From: Mustelus asterias
Lineage: Eukaryota
Assembly: GCF_964213995.1 (NCBI RefSeq)
Contig: NC_135813.1
Coordinates: 61,194,001-61,258,000 of the forward strand
Length of the DNA stretch: 64,000 bases
Reading direction: 5' to 3'
A program made the translations under genes and the position numbers. Shown piece after piece: positions 3,259 to 41,689 of the stretch (the first letter of the stretch is position 1; every line of letters begins with the position of its first letter). Under the pieces are notes generated by a model. It did not search any database. It had not been told where the DNA came from and saw only the letters and a list, made by a program, of their open reading frames with translations.

Positions 3259-4708
3259 ACAATTGGGCACATGTTTTTTTTCGCTGTTGTATTTCCTAAG
3301 AAGACTGCAGTTATAGGAGATCGCAAAGCAGAGCTGCTGTGCAATTAATGGCCTGATACGATTTTCCCGTCTGTCTCAACGCATACTTACAGCATTTTAT
3401 AAACATCAGACGTTGATCCAGCGCAGCCTCACACATTCGAATCGGATTCATTTTATACAAATTCTACCGTGGGATTCGTACGTACACAGAAATCCCAGAT
3501 TCAAGCAAATGTTCACAATCTCTTGGCGAAATTCAAGAAGCAGCAAAAGGTCACAGTTCATAATCTTTTCCCCACCCCCGTCAGAATGATTGACTGAGAA
3601 AGAGCATATTGTTATTTCTAGCTTCTTACATCATTTACTATCACCGCGCTTCAAAGGCTAATGTGTGCAATCTGACATAGTGCTATAAGATACGACTCGT
3701 TATTCCTTCTTGGTGTTATCAACAAGTTGAAATATTTGAGCTGTCTGCAGCGGGTGATTAATCCGTTGACTAGATAGCTAAAATCTGATCAAACTGGGAG
3801 CGTTTCGATTAAACAGGGTCTCGAGAGTAACTTTGCCCAGGTGCGATAGTAGTTCCAACTGTCAAATTATGACCGAATGAAAAACAAACCAGGCACTGGG
3901 CTAGTGCTCTGAAAGACCGAACAGACTGGAACACTTTTCCCTGGAAAAGAGGGAGCTGCGATGTGGGTGGGGAGGGCATGACCGAACACAGCGCTACGAA
4001 ATTAGTGAAGAGCTTGATAGTGTAGATCGTCACAAGGTATTTTCACTTTCGTGTCTATAACTATTACATCGCCACTAATAAAATTAGTGGGGAACCCGAG
4101 AGATAACTATTTAGGCAGAGACCTGAAATTGGCCGCCGCATGCAGGGGCGACGAGAACAGTGCCAATGTTTCTAGGGGGAATTAAATAAATGCACTAAGG
4201 AGAAATAGAAAGAAAGATTTGCAGATAAAATGAGATGAAGCAAGGTGAGAGGAGATTTCAGCGGAACAGCAATATCGCGATAGCTCACATGCAGCGAATG
4301 GCCTGTTTCTCTGCAGCAATTGGTATGTAACAATTCAAAAAGGTGGCCCCGCTGAGCGTTGCTAAATTTACCCTGGAACCTCCCCAACTAGTTTGCACTG
4401 AACATGAAATGTATATTGAAATATAACAAAATGGTGACCTTCGGGATTTAAACTGAATAAGAATCAATAATCTGTCTGTTCCCTTTTTTTCGAAAGGCAC
4501 GTTGCGTTGGGATTTTATTCAATTCGTTTAATAGTCTTCCAGATCTGCAGACTATGTGTGACTAGTTAAGGCACATTAAGAAGCTCTCGTTGCACAACAT
4601 ATAACTTGCGCAGTTAGATAGAAAACATATTTAAAACTTAAATCATTGAAACTGTTTGCATTTAAAACGCAGTAGATCTTCACACGTTGTTTCCACTTTT
4701 CTTTCCAG

Positions 4709-5031
4709 CGCCGCGGGCCCCCACGGTCTCCGTCCTTCCACGTTCATCGGGTCAAATCAAAGAAAAGGACAAGGCCACCCTAGTGTGTTTTCTTAACGGC
4801 TTCAACCCGCGAGTTGTGGAGGTTGAATGGACTGTAGAAGGCAGCGTCAGAGAGAATGGTGTTGAGACCAGTCGTGTACTGCAGGAAGCGGCCGACACGT
4901 TCAGTGTGAGCAGTTATCTGACTCTGTCAGTCTCAGAGTGGAATTCACACGAGCTTTATTCCTGTGTGGTTAAACACGAGGCCCTCGCAAACGCGCTTAA
5001 AGCAATTATAGAGAGGTCTAGCTGTATCTGA
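4709..5031 (+). CDS. IGLC: Ig lambda-type light-chain constant exon, cluster 1 (ORF intact)
   Basis: Acceptor ctttccAG at 4708; C1-set domain ATLVC..W..YSCVVKH with penultimate interchain Cys (SSCI*). Confidence 0.95.
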
Positions 5032-5235: not shown

Positions 5236-5241
5236 AATAAA
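5236..5241 (+). terminator. Polyadenylation signal of cluster 1
   Basis: AATAAA about 200 nt after the C stop, followed by T/GT-rich sequence; aligns with AATACA at 40181 in cluster 2. Confidence 0.65.
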
Positions 5242-5424
5242 ATAATTATTTTGGTATCTCATTTGATGGTAGCGTTTTCCTCCTTCTACTATCTTCGAAT
5301 TCATGACCATTTCAAGCCTCATAATCGTGAGGTTGTATTCTTGAAATCCTTTGAATATTTACATACAATCGTCTCACACTTGGTGGAAATAACGATTTTA
5401 CTAAATTGGTGACTGATCACTGAG

Positions 5425-6207
5425 TGAAGAAGGGAAATGGTTAATGTTTTTTTTGTACTCAATGTATTTTGTACCTAAAAGGTTGAACTTTGTACCTGGA
5501 ATGTATCACAAACATAACCCTTCCTTATGGGTAGTCTCCCCTTTGTTTATATTGCTCCTGGTAGTAGTATAAGCCATTTGTTCATGTCTTTCATCTTTTA
5601 CTTTTAGTAGTATAAGCCATTTGTTCTTGGTTTCATCTTTTACTTTTGGTATAAGCCATTTGTTCATGGTTCCCTCGCTTGTTTATATCATTCTGATAAA
5701 ACAGACAGTTAAATGTAGATGTAGGGTTGGAAGTCTTGCTTTTGCCGTAGGCTTGTGTATGATTTAAACAAAGGAAGCAGCTATCAAATGGTAGAGTGCG
5801 AGAATGGCCGTTTGAAGGAGGACTCCCACTGGGACAGCTGCAATCGCACACAGTCACTTCAAAGGAAAAGCTGCGGGAAGAGCAGGGGACCAGAGGTGGC
5901 ACCTTGACAACAACGACCAGGAGAATTGTGGTTTATGACCCAAGGATATCAGATAGTCTCTAACCATGATCCAGAGACTATCAGAAGCTGTTAAAGGAAC
6001 TATAATTTATGATCAAGGACTGTTAACTGGACTTTGTTTTATGGCTTGTATTGGGAACCCTGATGTATAAATATCCACGCCTCTTGTGTTCAGAGAGAAC
6101 TTTGGCTTCCGCTTTCAAGGGGTCAAGTTCTCCCATAAGCTTGTGAGAATAAAGCCTGACTGTAGTTTGACTCATACCAGCCTCAAGAGGTATATTTACC
6201 GACTTCA
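5425..6207 (+). repeat. 5' LTR
   Basis: TG...CA ends; about 3 tandem copies of a ~43-bp unit in U3 (about 5564-5670); TATAAATA at 6066; AATAAA at 6148; direct repeat of 11439-12220. Confidence 0.95.
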
Positions 6208-6209
6208 TT

Positions 6210-6227
6210 TGGTGCCAAAACCCGGGA
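6210..6227 (+). promoter_or_regulatory. Primer-binding site complementary to tRNA-Phe
   Basis: TGGTGCCAAAACCCGGGA two nt after the LTR; 17/18 match to the complement of the vertebrate tRNA-Phe 3' end (TGGTGCCGAAACCCGGGA). Confidence 0.9.
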
Positions 6228-6701
6228 GACCCCCGGATCTGTTTGCGGGCCTCTGTTTGCGGGCTCAGGTTGAATGGCCACAACCTGGGTACTGGAATAG
6301 AGTTCTGAACCTAATAGGGTGAGTCAAACTACAGTGGGCTGATCATATGTGATGAGAGAGTGTGAGAGTGAAAGACATCTGAGCTGAACACATACGGACA
6401 AGGAGGCATTTGTCTGTATGGATTCTCAAGTGAGTGTAAAGACTGGAGAAAAGTTGCCTGAGGTGTGATGTTCAGACGTGAGAGAGAAAGAAACTGTCTG
6501 TGTGAGAGAGAGACTGTCTAAGTGATCACCGGAGTAGAAGTAAGCTTAATAGTGTAAGCTTAATAGTGTAAGCGGTGGTACGGAGGGATTTGATCACCCC
6601 TGACAGGTAACACCGGACTCTGATAAGAGCAGCCTAGGAGTGGGAGAGCGAGAAGGGAGAATAGAAGGCTCCAGGTGGTGAGTATAAAACTTATCTGTAT
6701 T

Positions 6702-7760
6702 ATGGTGGGATCACAAGCACAAAGACAGTGGGGACTTCCGGAATCCCTGATAAATGAGTGTATGACTGAGAGGAACAAATTCATTAAACAGATGAGAAAA
6801 GGGGGGTGGAACTTATCCTGCCCTCTGGGCCAACAGCATAAGTGGTTGGGCAAAGAAAAGAGAAACATGACAAAGAAAATAGGAGTATTGTTAATACATC
6901 AGTTAGCTGGACTAATTGAGCAAGTAGTTGCCTCTACTCAGAAGTGGAGTGAGGAGAAAGAAAGGATGAGGGAGTTAGAATGCAGAGTAAGGGAACTGGA
7001 GAAACAAAACCAAGTGTTAGAAGAAAAGCTATGGAGAGGGGAAACCGTTCCTCTACCTCCTTATGAGTTCACACAACAGGGACTAAACGCTCTTCCAGAT
7101 GAATGGGACGCCCTAGAACACAACTTAGTGCGAGTAACCCGAGGGGGAACAGATGTGCAGCCAAAAGTAAATTATGAACCATTCACCCCAGGTGAGAGGC
7201 AGCAGATAATGGCTTCCCTGGGTAAATTACAACCTAGAAGCACAAACACTAAATTCTGGGAAGAATTAGACACAATCTGGGTAGGACACCTATTACACCT
7301 GAGAGACGTACACCAGCTAGTCAGGGCAGCCTGTCCAGCGGATAAGTGGAGGCAGGTAGCAGGTGGACCCGCCACTCCTCCAGCGCAGGATTATAGTGGG
7401 GGGTGGTGGACACATGTAGTCACCCTAACATCAGAGATAGATGCCCAACAGACACCCTTCACCCAGTTTAAGGTAGAAATTCTGAGAGTATTAGGGAATG
7501 CTCCCACTAACTGGAGCAGAATGACCACAATGAAACAGCTAAAAGGGGAAGGAGCTTCTGAATGTGGGGGATGGTTGTCCCAGGTACATCAGGAGTGCTC
7601 TGGACAAGGAAACCCAGGTCGAGGAGATCGAGCGTTCATCCAGGCTTTGAAGGATGAATTCTTTAGTGTTCACCAAAAAATCCTTGAAATGGAAATTCTC
7701 AGTACCCCAAACAATGATGAGTTGGTAGAATGGGCTAATGGCATACCTGGAGGTGGATAG
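6702..7760 (+). CDS. gag: Gag-like protein, C-terminally truncated
   Basis: Open frame of about 352 aa after the PBS; coiled-coil segment, LPPY late-domain-like motif, degenerate MHR-like KQLKGEGASECGGWL; no CCHC knuckle. Confidence 0.7.
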   Translation: MVGSQAQRQWGLPESLINECMTERNKFIKQMRKGGWNLSCPLGQQHKWLGKEKRNMTKKIGVLLIHQLAGLIEQVVASTQKWSEEKERMRELECRVRELEKQNQVLEEKLWRGETVPLPPYEFTQQGLNALPDEWDALEHNLVRVTRGGTDVQPKVNYEPFTPGERQQIMASLGKLQPRSTNTKFWEELDTIWVGHLLHLRDVHQLVRAACPADKWRQVAGGPATPPAQDYSGGWWTHVVTLTSEIDAQQTPFTQFKVEILRVLGNAPTNWSRMTTMKQLKGEGASECGGWLSQVHQECSGQGNPGRGDRAFIQALKDEFFSVHQKILEMEILSTPNNDELVEWANGIPGGG

Positions 7761-8526
7761 GAGAGATCTTAGTTGTTGTATTTCAGTGTGTTTGTGTGAT
7801 CTGGTTTCTAGTCGAATGTAGGTGGTTGTTGTTGTATTAAATTGAGAGCAGGAATTGTTGAAGCCTTTGTTTGTTCTTGTGGAGTGTTTATTGCGGGTAA
7901 TAAATGACCTTAGTTTAGCCTCAGGAGAGCTGGGGAGGTGTTAAGACTGTTAAAGATTAAAGTGATAAGATTTCTTGCATTTCCTTCTGTTTTGAGTTTT
8001 AATTACAGTTTGGAAGAAAGAAGAATAAAAGTGACTGTCTTAATCCAAGTTCTGTATTCTTTTAAATGTTTTACTTACATCTCAGTTTAAGATGTTAAGT
8101 TTGAATGAGTGTTGGAAGCTTCCATGTGTGTCTGTGTGTGTTTAACAGAGTTGTTTGTTTTGATGTGATTTTACAACAGTGGGTTTGATACAGGGTTTAA
8201 ATAAAATTAGGAAGGTAAATTGAAATTTCAAAATCAAAATACATAAATTGAAGTTGGAAATAGCCAATTTGAATTTTGATTAAACCTGTGTTTGAATTTT
8301 GTTAAGAAAGGATTTAAACCTTGGAGGGAACCATGTGCTCTCTCCTTTGTCTTAAAGTGAAGATTATGAGAGAGTTAGTTGAGAAATTGGGAGAAGAAAT
8401 TAAGTAATTTTATGGAAAAGTAGATAAGCAAGAACAAAAGAATGAGGTAAATGTACTGTCTATGAGTCAGTTTAAAATATTTTAAGTTACGTGAAATGAA
8501 TTATAATTCTGCTTATTTCAAGTTCC

Positions 8527-8674
8527 GATGTGGAAATGCCGGCGTTGGACTGGGGTAAGCACAGTAAGAAGTCTCACAACACCAGGTTAAAGTCCAACAG
8601 GTTTATTTGGTAGCAAATATTTGCTACCAAATAAACCTGTTGGACTTTAACCTGGTGTTGTGAGACTTCTTACT
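8527..8674. mobile_element. Penelope-like pLTR fragment forming a perfect 112-bp palindrome, inserted in the ERV
   Basis: 8563-8674 is self-complementary about 8618/8619; flanked by ATTTCAAGTTCC (8515-8526, 8675-8686); arm matches 19190-19240 and 50051-50110. Confidence 0.8.
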
Positions 8675-9443
8675 ATTTCAAGTTCCAGCAGGAGATTAAT
8701 CAATTAAATCTTAGTTGCCAATGCAAATTACCCTTACACATGTCTGATAGTTTAATATTCTGTAACCTGGTTAAAATTATGTACTGCCGTTGGAATTTTA
8801 TGTGCTATCTATTGTTCAAAGTTTGCCAAATATTGAGCACTGTCAAGCTTAAAATCTAGCCAGTTAAAATCAAACCAAAATATTTTTGATTAATTAACTA
8901 GTGTGTATTGTACCTACTGGTTTTGATTTGGCGCCTGTTGTTTTCCTCGAGTGCGGGGGGTTTGATCTGGAGCTCAGTTTAAATTGGAAACGGATTGGAT
9001 TAAAGGGTTTGGATATCACAGTTATGGTGTGTAAAGTATGATATAACTGCCGCTTGATTATTTTTATTATACAGTATAGCACTGCTACATAGACCCGGAA
9101 ATAAAATCAAACCCTGAAAAGCCCTTACCAATTTTGTATAATATAGTTATATATCATATGTTGTGTATTGATAAAACATAATTCTGTTGGAGCTTCCTGT
9201 TTTCCTCGCCATACAAATGATTAAACTAGAGATAATGTCGGGGTACGTTATATAAAGATTGGAGCTGTATGGTATGTGATTTTAATGGGGAATGCGATGT
9301 TTATTGATGAGATTATATACAAATGAATAGATGTCCAACTGCAGCCAAAAACCAGTGTAAAGTGTTATTTAATTCACACTAAGCTTTCTATGGAAGGGGG
9401 GTGTGTAGTTAACTGTATAATATACTAGCTACTATACCGATGA

Positions 9444-9733
9444 GATTAAGAATTACCACAAACCGGACAACCGGATTAACCCCTTATGAATTAATGACAG
9501 AATGGGTGATGACGTAGGTTCACTAAAAGATGAATTCAGGAGATATGTGTTGGAACTGAGCACCCAACTTAAAGGGATGCACAAATTGGTAAAAGACAAT
9601 CCGGAACAAAGAGACACGGGGAGAGAGAGCTTGAAATGCTCCCTGACGGGCGGAAAGTTGCGTCCAAGTAAAAGCACTACTTGACAAACGTGGGTTCGCC
9701 CCTAAATGGGAGGGCCCCTATGAGGTTAAAATT
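9444..9733 (+). pseudogene. pol: Integrase C-terminal remnant
   Basis: LRITTNRTTGLTPYELMT (end of IN core) and, in another frame, GFAPKWEGPYEV (GPY/F module). Confidence 0.75.
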
Positions 9734-9873
9734 GTGTAGAGTGCTTAATTCGCAGATATGCGAGACGTTTGACCTCCAAGCAAGCTGAACAGGTTCGCGG
9801 GCAGTGGCGCGTGGGCGCTATAGCCTTTGATCCATTGTATAACGGTCGCGCGGGTTATTAGTTAAGTGATAGG

Positions 9874-11344
9874 ATGATTTTCTTGCTGCTTCTCATGGCC
9901 CTTGCCCTGCTAGATACGGAGGGGAAGTATAGATGGAATTGTGTAGACTTGAAGATAGAGCATCGCAAGCATCTCTGTAATGATGGCTCTGTCTATTGTA
10001 ACCTTCTGACACATGGAATAAGTCCCTGGGAGGTAACCCGTAGGGGCCGCTGCTTGGGATTTCTTAACCATGTCATGTTGCTAACTCTGTTGGAGGGGCG
10101 AGGTGATTGGGGTCTCCCATGCATGTAGTGTGTTGTAACTGGAATTTTTGGTGTTTAGCTGAGGGACCGGGATGGATCTGTACCCGGCAACAGCAGAGGG
10201 CTTGGGAGGATATGTACATCAACACGAGATTTGGTCGATCCAAGCAATCATTGTACCAATCCTCTAAAATCCGACTCGATCACATGAACACTTTCATGTA
10301 TATGTCTCACTTGTATGTATTGCAGCCAAAACTTTGAGCAAGTGTTGGGTCTGCTTACATATTCCCAACACGGAGGAAAGGGGGGAAAAGTCCTTTATTC
10401 CCTATCCCTTTGTCAACTCCGGGAATGGTAGAGGGGATATCGAATCAGAATGGAACCCACGATGGGACAAGGAAAGTGACATTTAAAAACGCCATCAGGC
10501 ATGTTGTGAAAAACCAACAAGGGGGGGATCCATCAGCTTGGTAAGAAACGGAACCATACCTGTGGGCCTCAGCTGCTGTACCCAGCAGGTTAATGTCACC
10601 AGTGGTGCCTGGGCTTTGGTGCAACAGATTACAATCCATTGCCCCACTGCTGATGTCCTGGTCAGCCTCTCCTCTACTTATATGAGCAGCATGACTGTAT
10701 ATGATGGTACCTGTTGTGTCTGTGGAAACAATGCCTACCCATGGCTTCCTTGGGATTGGGTAGGATCGTGTTAATTAGCATATGTAGTATCCTATATTCA
10801 CCATTAGTGAGACAGAATGGTTCTTTATGATAGCTTTCCCACTTTATGGGACAGCAAAAGCAGCTCAGGAACTTATACCTATGGCCTTGACCTTGGAGAG
10901 ATTTGCGAATGAAACTAGAGACAGGTTCGAGGAGGTGAGCACAGCCTTCTCTGAAGTATCAACTGAGGTTGTAGCTATCCGGACTGTTGCTTTATTGAAC
11001 CGATTAACACTTGATTATGTGCTGGCTTTCCAGGGAGGAACGTGCGCTATAATTGAATCGAATGCTGCATGTATATCCCAGATGTTTCAGAAAATATAAC
11101 TCGTTTGGCAGATCATATCAAACGAGTGATGATGACAATACAAGGTGAAGGGAGCCAATATCATAATTATAACCCTCCGGGATGGCTGGGGCAATGGTTC
11201 AGGTCGTGGGAATCATATCTGATGCACGGGTTAATTGTATTAATTTTCATTGTTATTGCTTGTTGTATTTATATGATATTATTGAATGAACAGCCCGAAT
11301 TATGCCGAGTGCAAGTGTACAGGCAGAAGGGGCAGTCTTCCTGA
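9874..11344 (+). pseudogene. env: Gamma-type retroviral env, frameshifted
   Basis: Signal peptide MIFLLLLMALALL; CWVC at 10343-10354; CGNNAYPWLPWDWVGSC; ISD-like LLNRLTLDYVL; CX6CC split by a frameshift near 11058; TM anchor LIVLIFIVIACCIY. Confidence 0.88.
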
Positions 11345-11425
11345 TGAAGGAGGTAGGCCCATATATATTGGTAACATTTGGCTCTGAGTTGGTCATGGGG
11401 CCATGTTTGCACTTGGCCTCTGACC

Positions 11426-11437
11426 AAAAGGGGAGAA
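11426..11437 (+). promoter_or_regulatory. Polypurine tract
   Basis: AAAAGGGGAGAA ending one nt before the 3' LTR. Confidence 0.85.
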
Positions 11438-11438
11438 T

Positions 11439-12220
11439 TGAAGAAGGGAAAGGGTTAATGTTTTTTTTGTACTCAATGTATTTTGTACCTAAAAGGTTGA
11501 ACTTTGTACCTGGAATGTATCACAAACATAACCCTTCCTTATGGGTAGTCTCCCCTTTGTTTATATTGCTCCTGGTAGTAGTATAAGCCATTTGTTCATG
11601 TCTTTCATCTTTTACTTTTAGTAGTATAAGCCATTTGTTCTTGGTTTCATCTTTTACTTTTGATATAAGCCATTTGTTCATGGTTCCCTCGCTTGTTTAT
11701 ATCATTCTGATAAAACAGACAGTTAAATGTAGATGTACGGTTGGAAGTCTTGCTTTTCCTGTAGGCTTGTGTATGATTTAAACAAAGGAAGCAGCTATCA
11801 AATGGTAGAGTGCGAGAATGGCCGTTTGAAGGAGGACTCCCGCTGGGACAGCTGCAATCGCACACAGTCACTTCAAAGGAAAAGCTGCGGGAAGAGCAGG
11901 GGACCAGAGGTGGCACCTTGACAACAACGACCAGGAGAATTGTGGTTTATGACCCAAGGATATCAGATAGTCTCTAACCATGATCCAGAGACTATCAGAA
12001 GATGTTAAAGGAACTATAATTTACGATCAAGGACTGTTAACTGGACTTTGTTTTATGGCTTGTATTGGGAACCTTGATGTATAAATATCCACGCTTCTTG
12101 TGTTCAGAGAGAACTTTGGCTTCCGCTTTCAAGGGGTCAAGTTCTCCCATAAGCTTGTGAGATAAAGCCTGACTGTATTTTGACTCATACCAGCCTCAAG
12201 AGGTATATTTACCGACTTCA
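11439..12220 (+). repeat. 3' LTR
   Basis: 782 bp; by eye about 11 substitutions and one 1-nt deletion relative to the 5' LTR. Confidence 0.95.
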
Positions 12221-13589
12221 CTGAGTAATGATATATCCTATTAAACGCTACATTGGCTAAAATGTCTTGTATAAATATTGAAATATATTGTGCCTGTGAT
12301 TGAGTTGCTCATTCATCTTAGTTTTGCGTGACCTCAGTGTGAAAACACGTAATGCATCCTCGTTGGAAAAATACAAAGAGTAATCAGAAGCCCAATAGAA
12401 TCACATGGGAAGCTGAGCTGTAAAAAAGCAAAAATCATAGAACATGCTGCACAAATTCCACATGTACCGTAGAATCGGTTAAGAATATCGAAAGAACATT
12501 TTTGGCAAGGTTTCGATATTTGATCAGCGGTTCAGGAAGGAATCATCCCTGAACCGATCAGCAGGTGTACAGGATAGAATCTGCGATCAGGAACTAAAGT
12601 TGTTTTTTAAGAGAAGGTGCAACGATTTGTATAATTAGGAGAATATGTGCCCAGACGCATCGTCAACCATGTCGGTGAGCGTGTGGCAGCAGAGATATTG
12701 TGTGTAAACAGCAACTATCTGAGCGAATTGTTTCAGCTGCTGCAGAAAGAGTTCTGTCCCCTGACAGAATTTCAAAAGAAACAGTAAAGTGATACCCAGC
12801 CAGCGGTGGCGCAAGTTTTGCTTGCTACAGATGAGGTAGATTGGAATAAGAATCTAGGAGTGAACGGGGTGGCAGAGGAAGGGCTATGTGTGACGTCATT
12901 GAGGTAGTGCCGAAGCATATCATTAACTAAAATGGTTTTGTGCAGAAAGCTGAAGTGGAGTAATAGGGGTCAACATGAGGCATGAACCATTAGACAGAGG
13001 CCACACGGAGTAACTAACAATCGACTGGACACATCGAGTGCAGCGAAATATTGGCAGACGAAAAAGTAATTAAAAACTCACGGGGCTGATACGTAGATAC
13101 TCATCGCTGCAGGCTTGTGTAAAGATTCTCATTAATGGGTGCTACCATTGATTTCATTCTGGGGTGCATGAGCCAGGTGCCCTAAGCTAGTAAGCAGCCT
13201 GGCAGAACGGGAGGACAAACAAAGAAAGAGCGTATATTAATCCTAAAAGCGGATTCACGTCAGTAAGAAGAATATGGGTTAAGTAGACAATCTCAGAGAC
13301 TGAAAGTTAAGGCAACCTTCTTTCAGTGCAATGATTTCTTTCAAATTTGTCTGCCAACTGCAGTCTGCAGAGCCTTGCACGGGCTCACTCCACCACTTTA
13401 GAGGGTGGCCATTGGAATCACAAAACCTTTGCAGGCTTTATATTAGTTAACGTTAGAACAGTGCATCAATGTTATCCCTGAATAGATATTTTTGCTCAAT
13501 TGCGAAATGCAAAGGAAAGGCAACGAAACAAAGTCGTATGTCCAATGTTCTCGTCACAGGCTTCCCCGCTTCTCCCATCCATATATGCT

Positions 13590-36290: not shown

Positions 36291-36641
36291 GTACCAACGC
36301 TGCTCCGGTGCTAACTCAGCCAGCGTCCATCTCAACTTCACTGGGAAAAACCGTCACAATCACTTGCACCATGTCCGGAGCCAGCATGAGCAGTTACTAC
36401 ACAAGCTGGTACTGGCAGAAACCTGGCAGTGCCCCGGCCTTCGTTTGGAGGGACTATGACTCTACCAGAGGTTCGGGGATTCCTGAACGACTCACTGGAT
36501 CGAGGGACCTATCGAAGAACGTTATGTATTTAACCAACAACAATGTAAAGGCCGAGGATGTCGCTGATTATTATTGTGGCTCCTGGGATTTCAGTGCTGG
36601 CAGATTCACTTTCGGCAAAGGAACTAAACTGAATTTGGGCG
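36291..36641 (+). CDS. IGLV: Germline-joined VJ exon, cluster 2, in frame
   Basis: 351 nt between AG and GTGAGT; ITC..WYWQKP..DYYC GSWDFSAGRFT FGKGTKL; no RSS. Confidence 0.96.
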
Positions 36642-38467
36642 GTGAGTGTAATTTTCGCCGTGTACATCTAAGATTCCTAATTTTCGAGTTTTGAATTTCT
36701 GAATTTATCTAATAACATAGAAGTGCATTGGTGCAAACATTGATCATTCGTTATCTCTTGGTGTTTGCAAGGAGGTGCGTCGCAATTTTTTCCCAATATG
36801 CCCGAGAAAATTTCAAGTAAATATCGGTGTTCTAAATCCTTAGGAATTTTCGTACCAAGGAAGGACATTTCAATTGAGCTCTCTGTAGTTTATGTATAGT
36901 ACTTTTATAATGCATGTTAATCTGCACATGACCATGATGAGAATAATGATAAATTATTATTTACTTGTATGTATCTTGCTGTGGTCAGTGTGTCGTGGAG
37001 GCTTCATTGAGCGAAAACATTAACGTGAAATATTTTACAATTCTCCCACACGGTGCAGTTAAATATTGGGGATCAGAGAGATGGAGCGTGTGTATTTTCT
37101 GGGAAGATTCTCTGTTCTTTAGACTTAGCAGAAATAGTTCAGTTAGTGCGTCATTTTGAACGTTGTGCTTCATGTTAGTCATATGTTCATAACGTCACTA
37201 GTAAATCATGAGTAACAATAAACCAATTCGTTTAGAAAATTTAATAACAATTGCACATTTTACGAAATTGATGCTCTCTTTTGGAGCTGGAGTGTTGAGA
37301 TTATCAGTAATCAAATGGGAGTCGTAGTTTTAAATGTAAGTTGTTGTTTTATGGGGGACATAATGGATAGAGACTGTGATTCCGGTGATTAGTATGAGGG
37401 TGCAATGTTTTTGTTTTCAGTCAACTAGAAAATATTAGCGGGAAAAAGATTAGTTGAATTCCATCAAATGAAACTTTCTGGGTAAGTATGATCTCCGGGA
37501 GCTTGGCGGATCATTATCAAGAACTCCGCAAAAATATTTCCAACAATTCAATTGGACATATATTTTTCGCTGTTCTGTTTCCTTAAACAGATTGCGGTTA
37601 CAGGAGGGCGCAAATCAGGACCTCCTCTGCAATGAATGGCCTGATACTCTTTTCCCATTCTTCTCAATACATGTTTATAGCATTGCAGCAAAGTCAGACG
37701 TTAATCAGAAGTTAATTCCACGCAAAGCTTACAACCACTAATAAACTCATATTCAAATCGGGTTCATTTTATATAAATACTACCGCGGGATCAATGAATA
37801 AATATAAATCCCAGATTCAAGCGAATATTCACAATCTCTCGGCGCTATTCAAGGAGCAGCAAAAAAAATCACGGTTTGTGATCTCTTCCCCACGAATCCG
37901 AATGATTACCTGAGAATAAGCATATTGTTATATGCAGCTTCGTTCTTCATTTACTCGCACTGCGCTTCAGAGAACAATGTGTGGTACCTGACATAGTTCT
38001 ATAAGACACGAGTTAATTCATAGTAATCTTAACAAATAGAAATCCTGCCACGAATGATTTGACTAGGCAGCTAAAATCTGAACTGGGGAGCATTTAGATC
38101 AAACAATGTCTGAAGGATGATTTTGCCCGGGGTAATAGTAGTTCCAGTAGTTCAAGCATTCAAATGATAACATAACGGAAAACAAACCAGGCACGAGGTT
38201 GGTGCGCTGCAAGAAGGAACAGACTGGGAAACTTTTCTCTGGAAAACAAAGAGCTGCCGGTGGGTGGTGGTGAGGCGGGGTAGGGCTGATGACCTAATAT
38301 AGAGCTCCTAAACTAAAAACGAGTTTGATGGTATAGATTTCGACAAGATATTTTCATTTTCGTCTTTCTCCAAATACAGATTGTACAACTATTACATAGC
38401 CACGAATGAAGGCAGTAAAATATCCGAGAGGTTACTCTTGAAGCAGAGATGTGTAATTTGCCACTGC

Positions 38468-38822
38468 ATGGGCGATGGCTTAGTGGTATTATTGCTGGAC
38501 TATTGATCCAGAAACTCAACTAATGATCTGAGGACCCGGTTCGAATCCCGCCATGGCAACTGTTGGAGTTCGAATGCAATAAAACAATAATCTGGAATTA
38601 AGAATCTACTGATGGCCATCAAACCATTGTGGATTGTCGGAAAATCCATCAGGTTCACTAATGTCCTTTGGGAAAGGAAATCTGCCGTCCTTACCTGGTC
38701 TGGCCTACATGTGACTCCAGACCCACAGCAATGTGGTTGACTCTCCACTGCCCTTCGAGGGCAACTAGGGATGGGCAATAAATGCTGGCCAGCTAGGGAC
38801 GCCCATGTCCCATGAATGAACA
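38468..38822 (+). mobile_element. tRNA-derived SINE, DeuSINE/SacSINE1-like, in the J-C intron of cluster 2
   Basis: A-box-like TGGCTTAGTGG, B-box GGTTCGAATCC, central domain, tail ...GGGCAATAAATGCTGGCC...CATGAATGAA; absent in cluster 1 (about 4140); family name recalled, not verified. Confidence 0.75.
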
Positions 38823-38971
38823 GAAAAAGTGCTGTGGGTGAGGAGAACCAGAGGAAAAATTAATAAATGCAAGCGGGGGAACAGAAAAAAAGGATTTGCA
38901 GATATAAGGAGATGTTGTAGGGTGAGAGGAGATTAGGTGGAGCAGCAAATCGGCAGAGTCCAATTGGAGGA

Positions 38972-39234
38972 TGTTATGGCGACCACGAAGGCCGGGGGTC
39001 ATCAATAGATGTCACGGTGGGTTTCGTGGAGTACGACCTGCCTTATTGAGGGAGCGGAGGCTTGCACAATACGTAGCAGGCAGCGGTGGGTTTTAAAGTG
39101 GTTTTTTTCCCCGGACAGGTGTTTTTGGTCCCGGCGGAGACGACCTTATTGTAAGCCGCGGGAACTGCCCTTTCCTTTAGTACACATTAAAGGGTGTTGA
39201 TGACGGGAAACTGGCTTGTGCCTGAATTACTACA
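38972..39234 (+). mobile_element. Possible short solo LTR
   Basis: TGTTA...TACA ends; ATTAAA at 39186; absent from the cluster 1 intron; no clear TSD. Confidence 0.35.
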
Positions 39235-39660
39235 CTGGGGATCCCCCTTTTTTCTGCTGAAATTTGTATGTCATAATCCAAAAAAGGTTTGTGGCCACTA
39301 GCGTTGTTAAATTCTCCCCACAATCTTCAAAACTGAGTTGCACTGGACGTGAAACGAAAACTGAAATGGAGCAAAATCTGATTTTTGGGTTTTAATCTAA
39401 GTAAGAACATATAATCTGTCAGTTTCCGTTTTTCGAAATGCACGTACTCTAGGATTTTGCTCAATTCGTTTAATAGGTTTCTAGATCTACGGACTATGTG
39501 CGGTTAGTTAAGGCACTTTAAGAAGTTCTCATTGGACAACATATAAATAGCGCAGTAAGATTTTAAAAATCGTCTAAAACGTAAATCTGTGAATTTCGGC
39601 TGTTTGTATGTATAAAGTACGGAGTAGATCTTCATGCGCTGTTTCTCATTTTCTTTCCAG

Positions 39661-39983
39661 CGCCTCGGGCCCCCTCTGTCTCCGTCCTGCCGCCTTCGTC
39701 GGATCAAGTCAAAGAAAATGATAAGGCCACCCTGGTCTGTTTTATTAACAGCTTCAACCCGGGAGTTGTGGAGGTTGAATGGTTTGTAGATGGCAGTGTC
39801 AGAGGGAATGGTGTTGAGACCAGTCGTGTACTGCAGGAGACGAACAGCACGTTCAGTGTGAGCAGTTATCTGACTCTGTCAACCTCAGAATGGAACTCAC
39901 ATGAGCTTTACTCCTGTGTGGTTAAGCACCAGACCCTGGCAAATCCGTTAACAACAAACATACAGAGGTCTCGCTGTATCTGA
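39661..39983 (+). CDS. IGLC: Ig lambda-type light-chain constant exon, cluster 2
   Basis: Acceptor ttctttccAG at 39660; (A)PRAPSVSVLPPSSDQ..ATLVC..W..YSCVVKH..SRCI*; phase matches the VJ donor. Confidence 0.96.
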
Positions 39984-41689
39984 TGCAAAAGCCCAGCATC
40001 ACATTCTGTAGTTTAAACGTCAGGAAAGCAAAATTAAAACTTCGGGCTGTATTTTTATTTTCAACGCTCCATTTGAAATTATAAAAAAAATGCCCAGTTA
40101 GTTTGTTTGATACAATTTTGTGCAACGTAAACATTTGCTGATTCTGCAGTCATCTCACTTTCTTTGTACCATTTCAGTGTAATACAATTTGTAATTGATG
40201 GTATTGTTTTCCTGCTTCAGTATCTTCGAATTTCGGACCATTTTAAGCATCCTAATCAAGCGAGGCTGTATTCTTTATAGTCTTTTGAAAATTTATACAA
40301 AACTGCCTAGCATATTGTCGAAATAATGATTTTACAAAATTAGTGACTGAGTAATGATATATCTTAGTAAATGCTACACTGGCGAAAATGCCCTGTGTCT
40401 ATGATTAAGGTGATCGTTTGTCCTTGTTCTGAGTGACCTCAATGTGAAACCAAATAACGTCACAACTTCCTCGTTGGCAAATATAATTGGTAGTCAGGCA
40501 CCCAATAGAATCAGAATGTAAGCTGAGATAATACAGGAAGAAATATTCATCGAATGTTTTCGCACAAATAACACACGTGTCTTAGAATCGGATAAGTATT
40601 TTAACACAACGGTTTTATAAAGCTGTAGCAGGATTCTAAGCAGTGGAACGATGATTCCGGAATTGGTCACCCCTGAACCGATCAGAAGCTGTACAAGAGA
40701 GAATTTGGGAGCAGAAATTAAAGTTACTTTTAAGAAATTGGTGAACATTTGCGTAATTTGGAGAATATGTGCACACAAAGATCGCCAGCCATGTCGTTGA
40801 GCGTTTGCAAGCAGAGGTATTGGTCCTGAACAGTAACAATCTGTGCGAACTGTTTCAGCTGCTGCAGAAAGAACTCTGTCACCTGACAGAATTCTAAAAA
40901 TAACAGTAAGTTAATATCAAAGTGGCAAGTTTTGTTTGCTACTACGAGAAGCAATAACACAATTGAGGTCGTGCCGAAGCATACTACCAACTTAAACGGT
41001 GTCGTGCAGGAAGAAGAGGTGTAATATGGGCCAACGTGAGTCATTAACGGTTAGACAGAGACTGTAATACAGCTGAGTAAATGAAATTCAGGCTAGCCAC
41101 ATCGAGTTCAGCAAAATATTGGCAGACGAAAAAGCAGTTAGAAAATCGCAGGGCTGATACGCAGACGTTCACTGTTCTGGGATTGGGTAAAGACTCTTAT
41201 TAATGGGTACAAACATCTATTAGATTCCAGGGCAGATGCCCAGAGCTGGCGAACAGGGTGGCAGGACATAGGATAAACACAGAAAGAGCATGCGTTAAAC
41301 CTAAATGAAGATTCACATCAGTAAAAGGAAAATGTGTTGGTTAGGCAATTTCACGAGCCTGTAAACTGTGGCAAGCTGCACCAGGAACCTTTCTAATTTC
41401 ACTGGACTGTTTTACTTACAATTTGACCGCGAAACTGTCGTCTGCAAAACCTTGCACGGGCTGGCTGCACCTCTTTGCAGCGCCCCTTGTTGGAAGCGCA
41501 ATGATTTTGCAGGCTTTATATTAGTTAATTTTAAGAATGGGGCATACATGTTATCGGTGAATACAAACGTTTTCTCTACTGATAATTTCCAAGGATAGGC
41601 ACCGAAATAAAGTCATCTATCCAATACTCTCCTCATAGGCATCCCCTCGTCTGCCATCCATGCACCCTCGTAATCTAGAGCACATCAAA

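Follow-up and report, generated by a model that had tools for sequence, protein, structure and literature searches.

A stretch of 64,000 nucleotides from the shark Mustelus asterias (NCBI RefSeq assembly GCF_964213995.1, contig NC_135813.1, positions 61,194,001 to 61,258,000 of the forward strand; hereafter the window, whose own numbering is used throughout) carries an endogenous retrovirus (ERV) at positions 5425 to 12220. The explanation that we consider probable overall is that this provirus belongs to a pol-less mosaic family copied by the proteins of a pol-containing family, and that its gag frame is kept probably for translation of the RNA. We call the pol-less family with C-type ends, to which the window element belongs, A, and two related pol-containing families B and C.

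A pol-less family with two sources

The long terminal repeats (LTRs) of the window element are 11 substitutions and one indel apart (Kimura two-parameter distance 0.0142). A tRNA search of the genome paired its primer-binding site (PBS), but for one mismatch, with the 3' end of a tRNA-Phe(GAA) gene, and its polypurine tract (PPT) is purine-rich, with a small difference from that of most sister copies. The gag frame runs from an ATG at 6702 to a TAG at 7760, and this stop precedes the position of the two zinc knuckles of its relatives. Protease, reverse transcriptase (RT) and RNase H were not detected in the window element, and an integrase (IN) tail alone is left of pol. The non-coding spacer in their place has 32–36% GC, and its longest frame on either strand has at most 74 codons (7761–9440). 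An earlier description made from the letters of the window (the sequence-only reading) had anticipated this arrangement: LTRs differing at about 12 of 783 positions, an intact PBS, PPT and target-site duplication (TSD), a gag frame open for about 350 codons (352 were counted), the loss of protease, RT and RNase H with an IN tail remaining, and an AT-rich non-coding centre of about 1.7 kb (1.67 kb as delimited here).

The pol-less state is a property of the family and is not private to the window copy. We retrieved 170 loci from the window's genome and classed 131, the window included: 80 were pol-less with the spacer, 27 were pol-containing B, 21 were pol-containing C, and three were fragments. 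The junction of gag stop and spacer had 211 exact matches in the genome, a count that takes in duplicates and B-type copies, and the reversed control had none. Protease and RT were missing and the spacer was present in 30 of 30 loci from a DNA search, and 39 of 40 further gag matches showed the spacer start. Long open pol frames occur in some B and C copies (loci scored: at least 150 for B and at least 36 for C). Most copies have distinct flanks and TSDs of their own, and a few have mismatched flanks. The sister copies thus share the deletion, the spacer and env lesions, as the sequence-only reading had asked to be checked; spacer and env breaks are common even to copies with a single LTR difference in about 730 sites, which upholds its proposal that the internal decay preceded integration.

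Comparison with the pol-containing families indicates that the element is a recombinant of the pol-less branch of B (gag core, spacer and IN tail) and C (LTRs, PBS, leader and env), an origin in two families that had been missed before. In 150-nt windows, the LTR, leader, first gag codons and env align at 83–97% to young C copies and essentially not at all to B. The gag core (about 6840–7750) aligns at 82–97% to the nearer B group, and C gives short or 71–77% matches over most of it. The spacer is common only to pol-less copies, save for one piece noted below, and the IN tail is B-like. The crossovers were placed at about 6820–6850 (C to B) and 9700–9725 (B to C), both where B and C resemble each other. 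In a gag-core tree of 39 chosen rows, A stands among the B rows, with C apart at 100/100. Two results tell against the mosaic: the approximately unbiased (AU) test on the gag core does not reject A+C (p 0.125), the mosaic being read from distances, and one pol-containing locus (L159) also scored one spacer piece. Because the spacer is flanked by B sequence on both sides and is present in wholly B-type copies, the deletion is likely to have arisen in B first, with the C ends acquired later. Among the 80 pol-less spacer copies, five have a B-type primer site and env; family B has its own env, and its primer site is presumably of the Ser type.

Several side observations concern the copies themselves. 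The loci L039, L040, L043, L044, L046, L048, L049, L057, L058 and L099 were multiplied by segmental duplication, and several of these duplicated copies combine mismatched flanks with 10% LTR divergence, a mark of ectopic recombination between proviruses. Some or all of the family-wide env breaks are missing from four pol-less loci (L097, L102, L103 and L118), which is consistent with new crossovers with C inside env. Two primer-site variants, one base apart, alternate among close A copies, and L078 has a third; the tRNA search matched only the variant of the window. Family B is large: all 150 scored RT matches reach at least 91%, and copies about 6 kb apart form a tandem run on C26 near 19.03–19.12 Mb.

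Helper and age

The element was almost certainly copied in trans, as the sequence-only reading had proposed: the loss of pol extends family-wide over independent insertions, and a search for pol-containing elements with the same LTR and PBS led to family C, which has the same env as well. The features of a non-autonomous ERV were found together, namely shared pol loss, retained cis signals, and a pol-containing partner of overlapping age with the same LTR and PBS. A tree built from 51 3' LTRs shows A and C interleaved in an age-sorted ladder that needs eight label changes; a group of five young A copies pairs with one of five young C copies as its sister (fork support 87/89), and a single A clade is rejected (p-AU 3e-40). 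LTR divergence spans 0.0014–0.069 in the 38 A copies with their own matching TSD and 0.0028–0.042 in C, so that the ranges overlap. Since the LTRs of A and C interleave by age, C is very probably the main helper. Repeated renewal of the LTRs from C is what co-packaging would predict, as has been reported for bovine C and D elements (PMC10924933). Three considerations pull in the other direction: genomic gene conversion could explain part of the LTR interleaving, B also has young copies, and TSD length cannot tell helper B from helper C. A reading of two helpers from TSD length was rejected, as every group mixes 4 and 5 bp (A 13/28, B 7/7, C 4/8). Retroviral integrases usually yield one main TSD length; in all three families both the 4-bp and the 5-bp TSDs occur in large shares.

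The recent integration claimed for the window copy stands in a relative sense only. With 1.4% divergence it ranks 16th youngest of 38, the youngest copies having one LTR difference in about 730 sites. With rates taken from two sources, 0.0142 corresponds to about 10 million generations (7e-10 per generation, a shark rate; PMC10587355) or about 32 million years, roughly 30 (2.2e-10 per year, assumed; PMC4422223), and CpG decay would shorten both figures. The window copy is mid-aged in its family, perhaps tens of millions of years old.

The history that we propose would begin with a family-B provirus that lost the region from nucleocapsid (NC) to IN and gained the spacer, a stage of which B-type pol-less copies survive. 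Recombination with C at about 6830 and 9710 would then have supplied C's ends, and the LTRs would have been renewed repeatedly from C, probably in particles that packaged both RNAs, as env decayed. The RNA would be packaged, reverse-transcribed and integrated by C proteins via C-type cis signals, and copying by this route is well supported by sequence.

Decay of env and selection on the gag frame

Among 77 independent gag copies (10 duplicates were dropped), 35 have gag open. Inherited gag indels comprised seven in-frame alleles and no frameshifts, as against 14 in-frame and 34 frameshifting private ones (p 6e-4; p 0.004 when alleles in at least three copies only are used). Stops made up 34 of 564 private variants versus 1 of 112 variants in at least five copies (p 0.019). 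It follows from the seven in-frame indels, the zero frameshifts and the rarity of shared stops that open-gag copies left the descendants. Stops found in two copies each, at codons 264 and 291, were considered as tolerance of late stops and rejected because they sit in non-neighbour copies and are hence recurrences; a gag frameshift apparently shared by three copies was partly one duplicate locus.

The env gene of the same copies inherited 13 frameshift alleles and one in-frame allele, and its shared and private variants have the same nonsynonymous-to-synonymous (N/S) composition (ratio 0.92–0.97); env is a neutral passenger. Measured against a natural open reference frame, env was broken in 54 of 54 scorable A copies; eight partial copies were skipped, and the stop at reference codon 572, its normal end, was left uncounted. 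A deletion near 10500 recurs in 49 of the 54, and other breaks in 45, 44, 42 and 26. The window env has 11 frameshifting indels and one stop, so the frameshifts reported by the sequence-only reading were found and its several stops were reduced to one. As env is broken in all 54 copies, gag alone is open, and the label of a gag+env element had to be given up. The TLV_coat profile matched the window weakly (E 0.15 only), and what we take to be pieces of a CX6CC transmembrane motif lie on both sides of a break in its env.

The gag protein seems to be decaying behind its frame. Codons 1–70 show no constraint (ratio 1.1–1.2). Of 192 residues conserved in pol-containing frames, 29 are changed in at least 30% of copies, as are 14 of 60 in the C-terminal part. 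Two of 77 A copies keep the Arg of what is presumed to be the major homology region, versus 41 of 44 pol-containing ones; the motif aromatic residue has become Cys in 60 of 77, and the motif Gln and second Glu are kept in 77 of 77. The presumed capsid-start Pro is lost in 38 of 77 A copies and kept in 40 of 40 pol-containing copies. A 2-residue deletion is present in 35 of 77 copies, and a 16-residue deletion was inherited by six. The labels of the capsid motif and of the Pro are putative because the fold prediction failed (AlphaFold, pLDDT 42); a profile search against PDB matched the NC knuckles only. Family C gag has a shared/private N/S ratio of 0.28–0.48, and the ratio in A is 0.93–1.12 once alleles also found in pol-containing families are removed. 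Pairwise NG86 ratios of gag (A-A 0.51) were set aside because they have no neutral baseline. On the evidence of these variants, the gag frame is under selection, with amino-acid constraint weak to absent.

Several points weigh against this reading and against the capsid assignment. The unfiltered shared-versus-private N/S ratio is 0.56 (0.39–0.81, p 0.002), and removing alleles found in pol-containing families may discard real signal. Two close copies may have inherited a stop at codon 111. The capsid-motif label is based on resemblance to the presumed major homology motif, on alignment conservation and on two sub-threshold Gag_p24_C hits in distant homologues. The stretch right after the gag stop is not clearly better conserved than the remaining spacer, and the spacer is not CU-rich, unlike the Rous sarcoma virus (RSV) RNA stability element.

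That translation of gag, and not its protein, is selected is to our minds an evenly balanced proposition. Ribosomes running to the stop beside the spacer would most likely shield the unspliced RNA from nonsense-mediated decay (NMD); alternatively, the open frame may act in cis through another translation-dependent step. In RSV (PMC2925335), premature stops early in gag lower unspliced RNA by destabilising it, which would select an open frame; the stability element is known there, and the spacer here is without clear extra conservation after the stop. Bolder, and only tentatively put forward as somewhat less probable than even, is the proposal of a retroviral parasite that persisted beyond its first helper by acquiring the ends of a second virus family through recombination, with gag selected only for translation and its protein free to decay.

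The main rival, which we regard as unlikely, is that a truncated Gag acts in cis, joining helper Gag in assembly and bringing the RNA that encodes it into particles, as reported for IAP 1Δ1, whose open frame acts in cis (PMC6466679). The retained frame, the unfiltered N/S ratio, the invariant Gln and second Glu, and an N-terminus taken from helper C would suit such a protein; the absence of NC, the unconstrained codons 1–70 and the changes among otherwise conserved residues, including those in the C-terminal part, argue against it. The sequence-only reading had suggested that open gag may be selected for packaging or interference. Selection on the frame was borne out, and a packaging role is unlikely given the missing NC, the loss of capsid-motif residues and the weak constraint on amino acids.

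It is quite improbable that the host has retained Gag without NC for use as a dominant-negative restriction factor, for which enJSRV and Fv1 are models, or as a developmental protein. The loss of NC and the capsid-motif changes could fit an interfering Gag, 35 of 77 copies are open, and zebrafish Bik-1 offers a precedent (PMC12067270). Against this, private gag variants agree with the neutral expectation derived from env (ratio 0.90; 22 stops seen versus 21 expected, in a set that still includes one duplicate locus), a result that speaks against selection at host level across the family. Purifying selection after insertion, the mark of a host-domesticated gag, is not seen at family level; the signal lies in inherited variants, that is, in replication and not at host loci, and by blocking C such a protein would work against the copying of its own element. 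We likewise give little credence to the view that open gag reflects chance or sampling in a plain defective ERV: 18 of the first 47 copies were chosen for open frames and only seven inherited indel events are available, but the 40 extra gag matches, taken regardless of frame, strengthened the pattern, and env of the same copies inherited frameshifts freely. That the lesions are private to the window copy, that conversion explains its LTR identity, or that segmental duplication spread the copies is scarcely credible and already refuted, since, although one insertion is in some cases represented by several loci (10 dropped, 7 set aside) and a few flanks are mismatched, the lesions are shared by copies with nearly identical LTRs, and most copies have distinct flanks and TSDs.

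Layout, surroundings and known systems

Table 1. Features of the window element and the adjacent host exon (window coordinates).
Feature	Position	Strand	Remarks
Host frame with immunoglobulin C1-set constant exon	4666..5031	+	E 1.5e-23
5' TSD	5420..5424	+	5 bp, CTGAG
5' LTR	5425..6207	+	family-C type; TATAAA at 6066, AATAAA at 6148
PBS	6210..6227	+	tRNA-Phe, one mismatch
Leader	6228..6701	+	C-like (85–92%, 150-nt windows; B does not align); presumed packaging region, putative function
Open gag frame	6702..7760	+	352 codons, without NC; first ~45 codons C-like, core B-like; capsid-motif residues altered
Spacer	7761..9430	+	U/G-rich, non-coding; in place of NC-pro-RT-RNase H-most of IN; common to pol-less A and B copies
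Palindromic insertion	8527..8673	.	very abundant repeat; 13-bp duplication at 8514–8526 and 8674–8686
Broken IN tail	9431..9730	+	B-like
Dead env	9874..11387	+	family-C type (84–93% to C)
env breaks, near	10123, 10331, 10368, 10386, 10485, 10500, 10521, 10772, 10801, 11060, 11289, 11361	+	
PPT	11426..11437	+	
3' LTR	11439..12220	+	
3' TSD	12221..12225	+	CTGAG

The provirus begins about 390 bp past the stop of an immunoglobulin (Ig) C1-set frame on the same strand, and about 190 bp downstream of a poly(A) signal at 5236. The empty site is represented near 40346, at a paralogous Ig locus of the window with one CTGAG only. One sequence run (X1, contigs of uncertain kind) covers the element and not the flank; in another (X2, possibly the source itself) the filled junction was unchanged and no empty allele was seen. 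Ig light-chain-like clusters occur in the window at 4666–5031, about 36600–40000 and about 62800, and constant exons lie near 4780 and 39730. In the V-J-like frames, found at 36611 and 62808, a YYC motif continues directly into FGxG, which suggests germline-joined genes.

An origin of the spacer as decayed pol was rejected, as permissive blastn and tblastx searches against 48 pol-containing loci gave only the repeat insertion as top hits. This palindromic insertion of 147 bp, which the sequence-only reading had overlooked, is absent from 30 of 30 sisters from the DNA search; presumably it resembles a shark Penelope-type fragment. An Rfam search gave a single match, of the palindrome to a miRNA model, below its cut-off. 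L081 (G000:C9:57358555-57367554) has the same repeat at the same spacer site in opposite orientation, and the two may be insertions into one preferred target, or an inversion.

Judged on its helpers, the element would be a class I-like (gamma/epsilon-like) ERV. Helper RT matched MLV-type RT chains at E of about 1e-69 to 1e-71, protease-RT chains, which we assume to be of foamy type, at 1e-52, and HIV at 1e-19 to 1e-24. The nearest named pol sequences are from horn shark (55%) and fathead minnow (50%). The horn shark match and the Ig clusters of the window both fit a shark host. Gag and pro-pol of the helpers share one frame with a stop between them. A search of viral contigs yielded no relevant relative.

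The element belongs with the known defective/competent pairs, namely bovine ERVK C/D, MusD/ETn and KoRV/recKoRV. Bovine ERVK[2-1-LTR] C/D (PMC10924933) likewise has a defective type of about 6.8 kb with an unrelated centre and competent-type flanks, and trans-complementation, C-D recombination and an excess of defective copies, which here are deduced from sequence. The bovine pair is betaretroviral, its D type is without intact gag and both flanks come from one clade, whereas the shark element is class I-like, has an open gag and took its core from a second family. In MusD/ETn (PMC6466679) and KoRV/recKoRV (PMC10924933), too, the non-autonomous partner took its ends from the helper and has a centre of foreign origin; ETn lacks any coding capacity (PMC6466679), whereas here 352 codons are open and the B-type stage before the switch survives. 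IAP 1Δ1 is also non-autonomous with a retained, cis-acting frame (PMC6466679), but that frame is a gag-pol fusion by simple deletion, in contrast to the gag of the shark element, which has no NC, precedes a spacer and shows decay of its capsid motif. The BHIKHARI elements of zebrafish (Bik-1/Bik-2; PMC12067270) are likewise from fish, LTR-flanked and recently active, and have gag only; they are related to lokiretroviruses, no partner has been found for them and their host role was tested, whereas the shark element has helpers and env and IN remnants. Membership in BHIKHARI or the lokiretroviruses was rejected, given the MLV-like helper RT and these remnants. Lineages II/III of elephant shark CmiERV (PMC4422223) are epsilon-like ERVs of cartilaginous fish, known by description as few old copies with no non-autonomous family described. 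A literature search, with Repbase/Dfam (where a code name is possible), subscription papers and supplements outside its scope, found no account of this shark family, of the helper switch, or of frame-only selection in an ERV.

These findings extend defective/competent ERV pairs, described mainly in mammals, to cartilaginous fish, and donor family, intermediate stage and present helper can all be read in one genome. They also caution against taking the open gag of a pol-less ERV as a sign that its protein works or has been domesticated. The question why portions of gag persist in defective ERVs becomes testable on natural copies, in which the frame can be separated from the protein and dead env, carried by the same RNA, serves as a neutral control. 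If gag is indeed selected for translation only, the pattern would be the mark that NMD, or some other step depending on translation, has left on an endogenous retrovirus at the level of population genetics.

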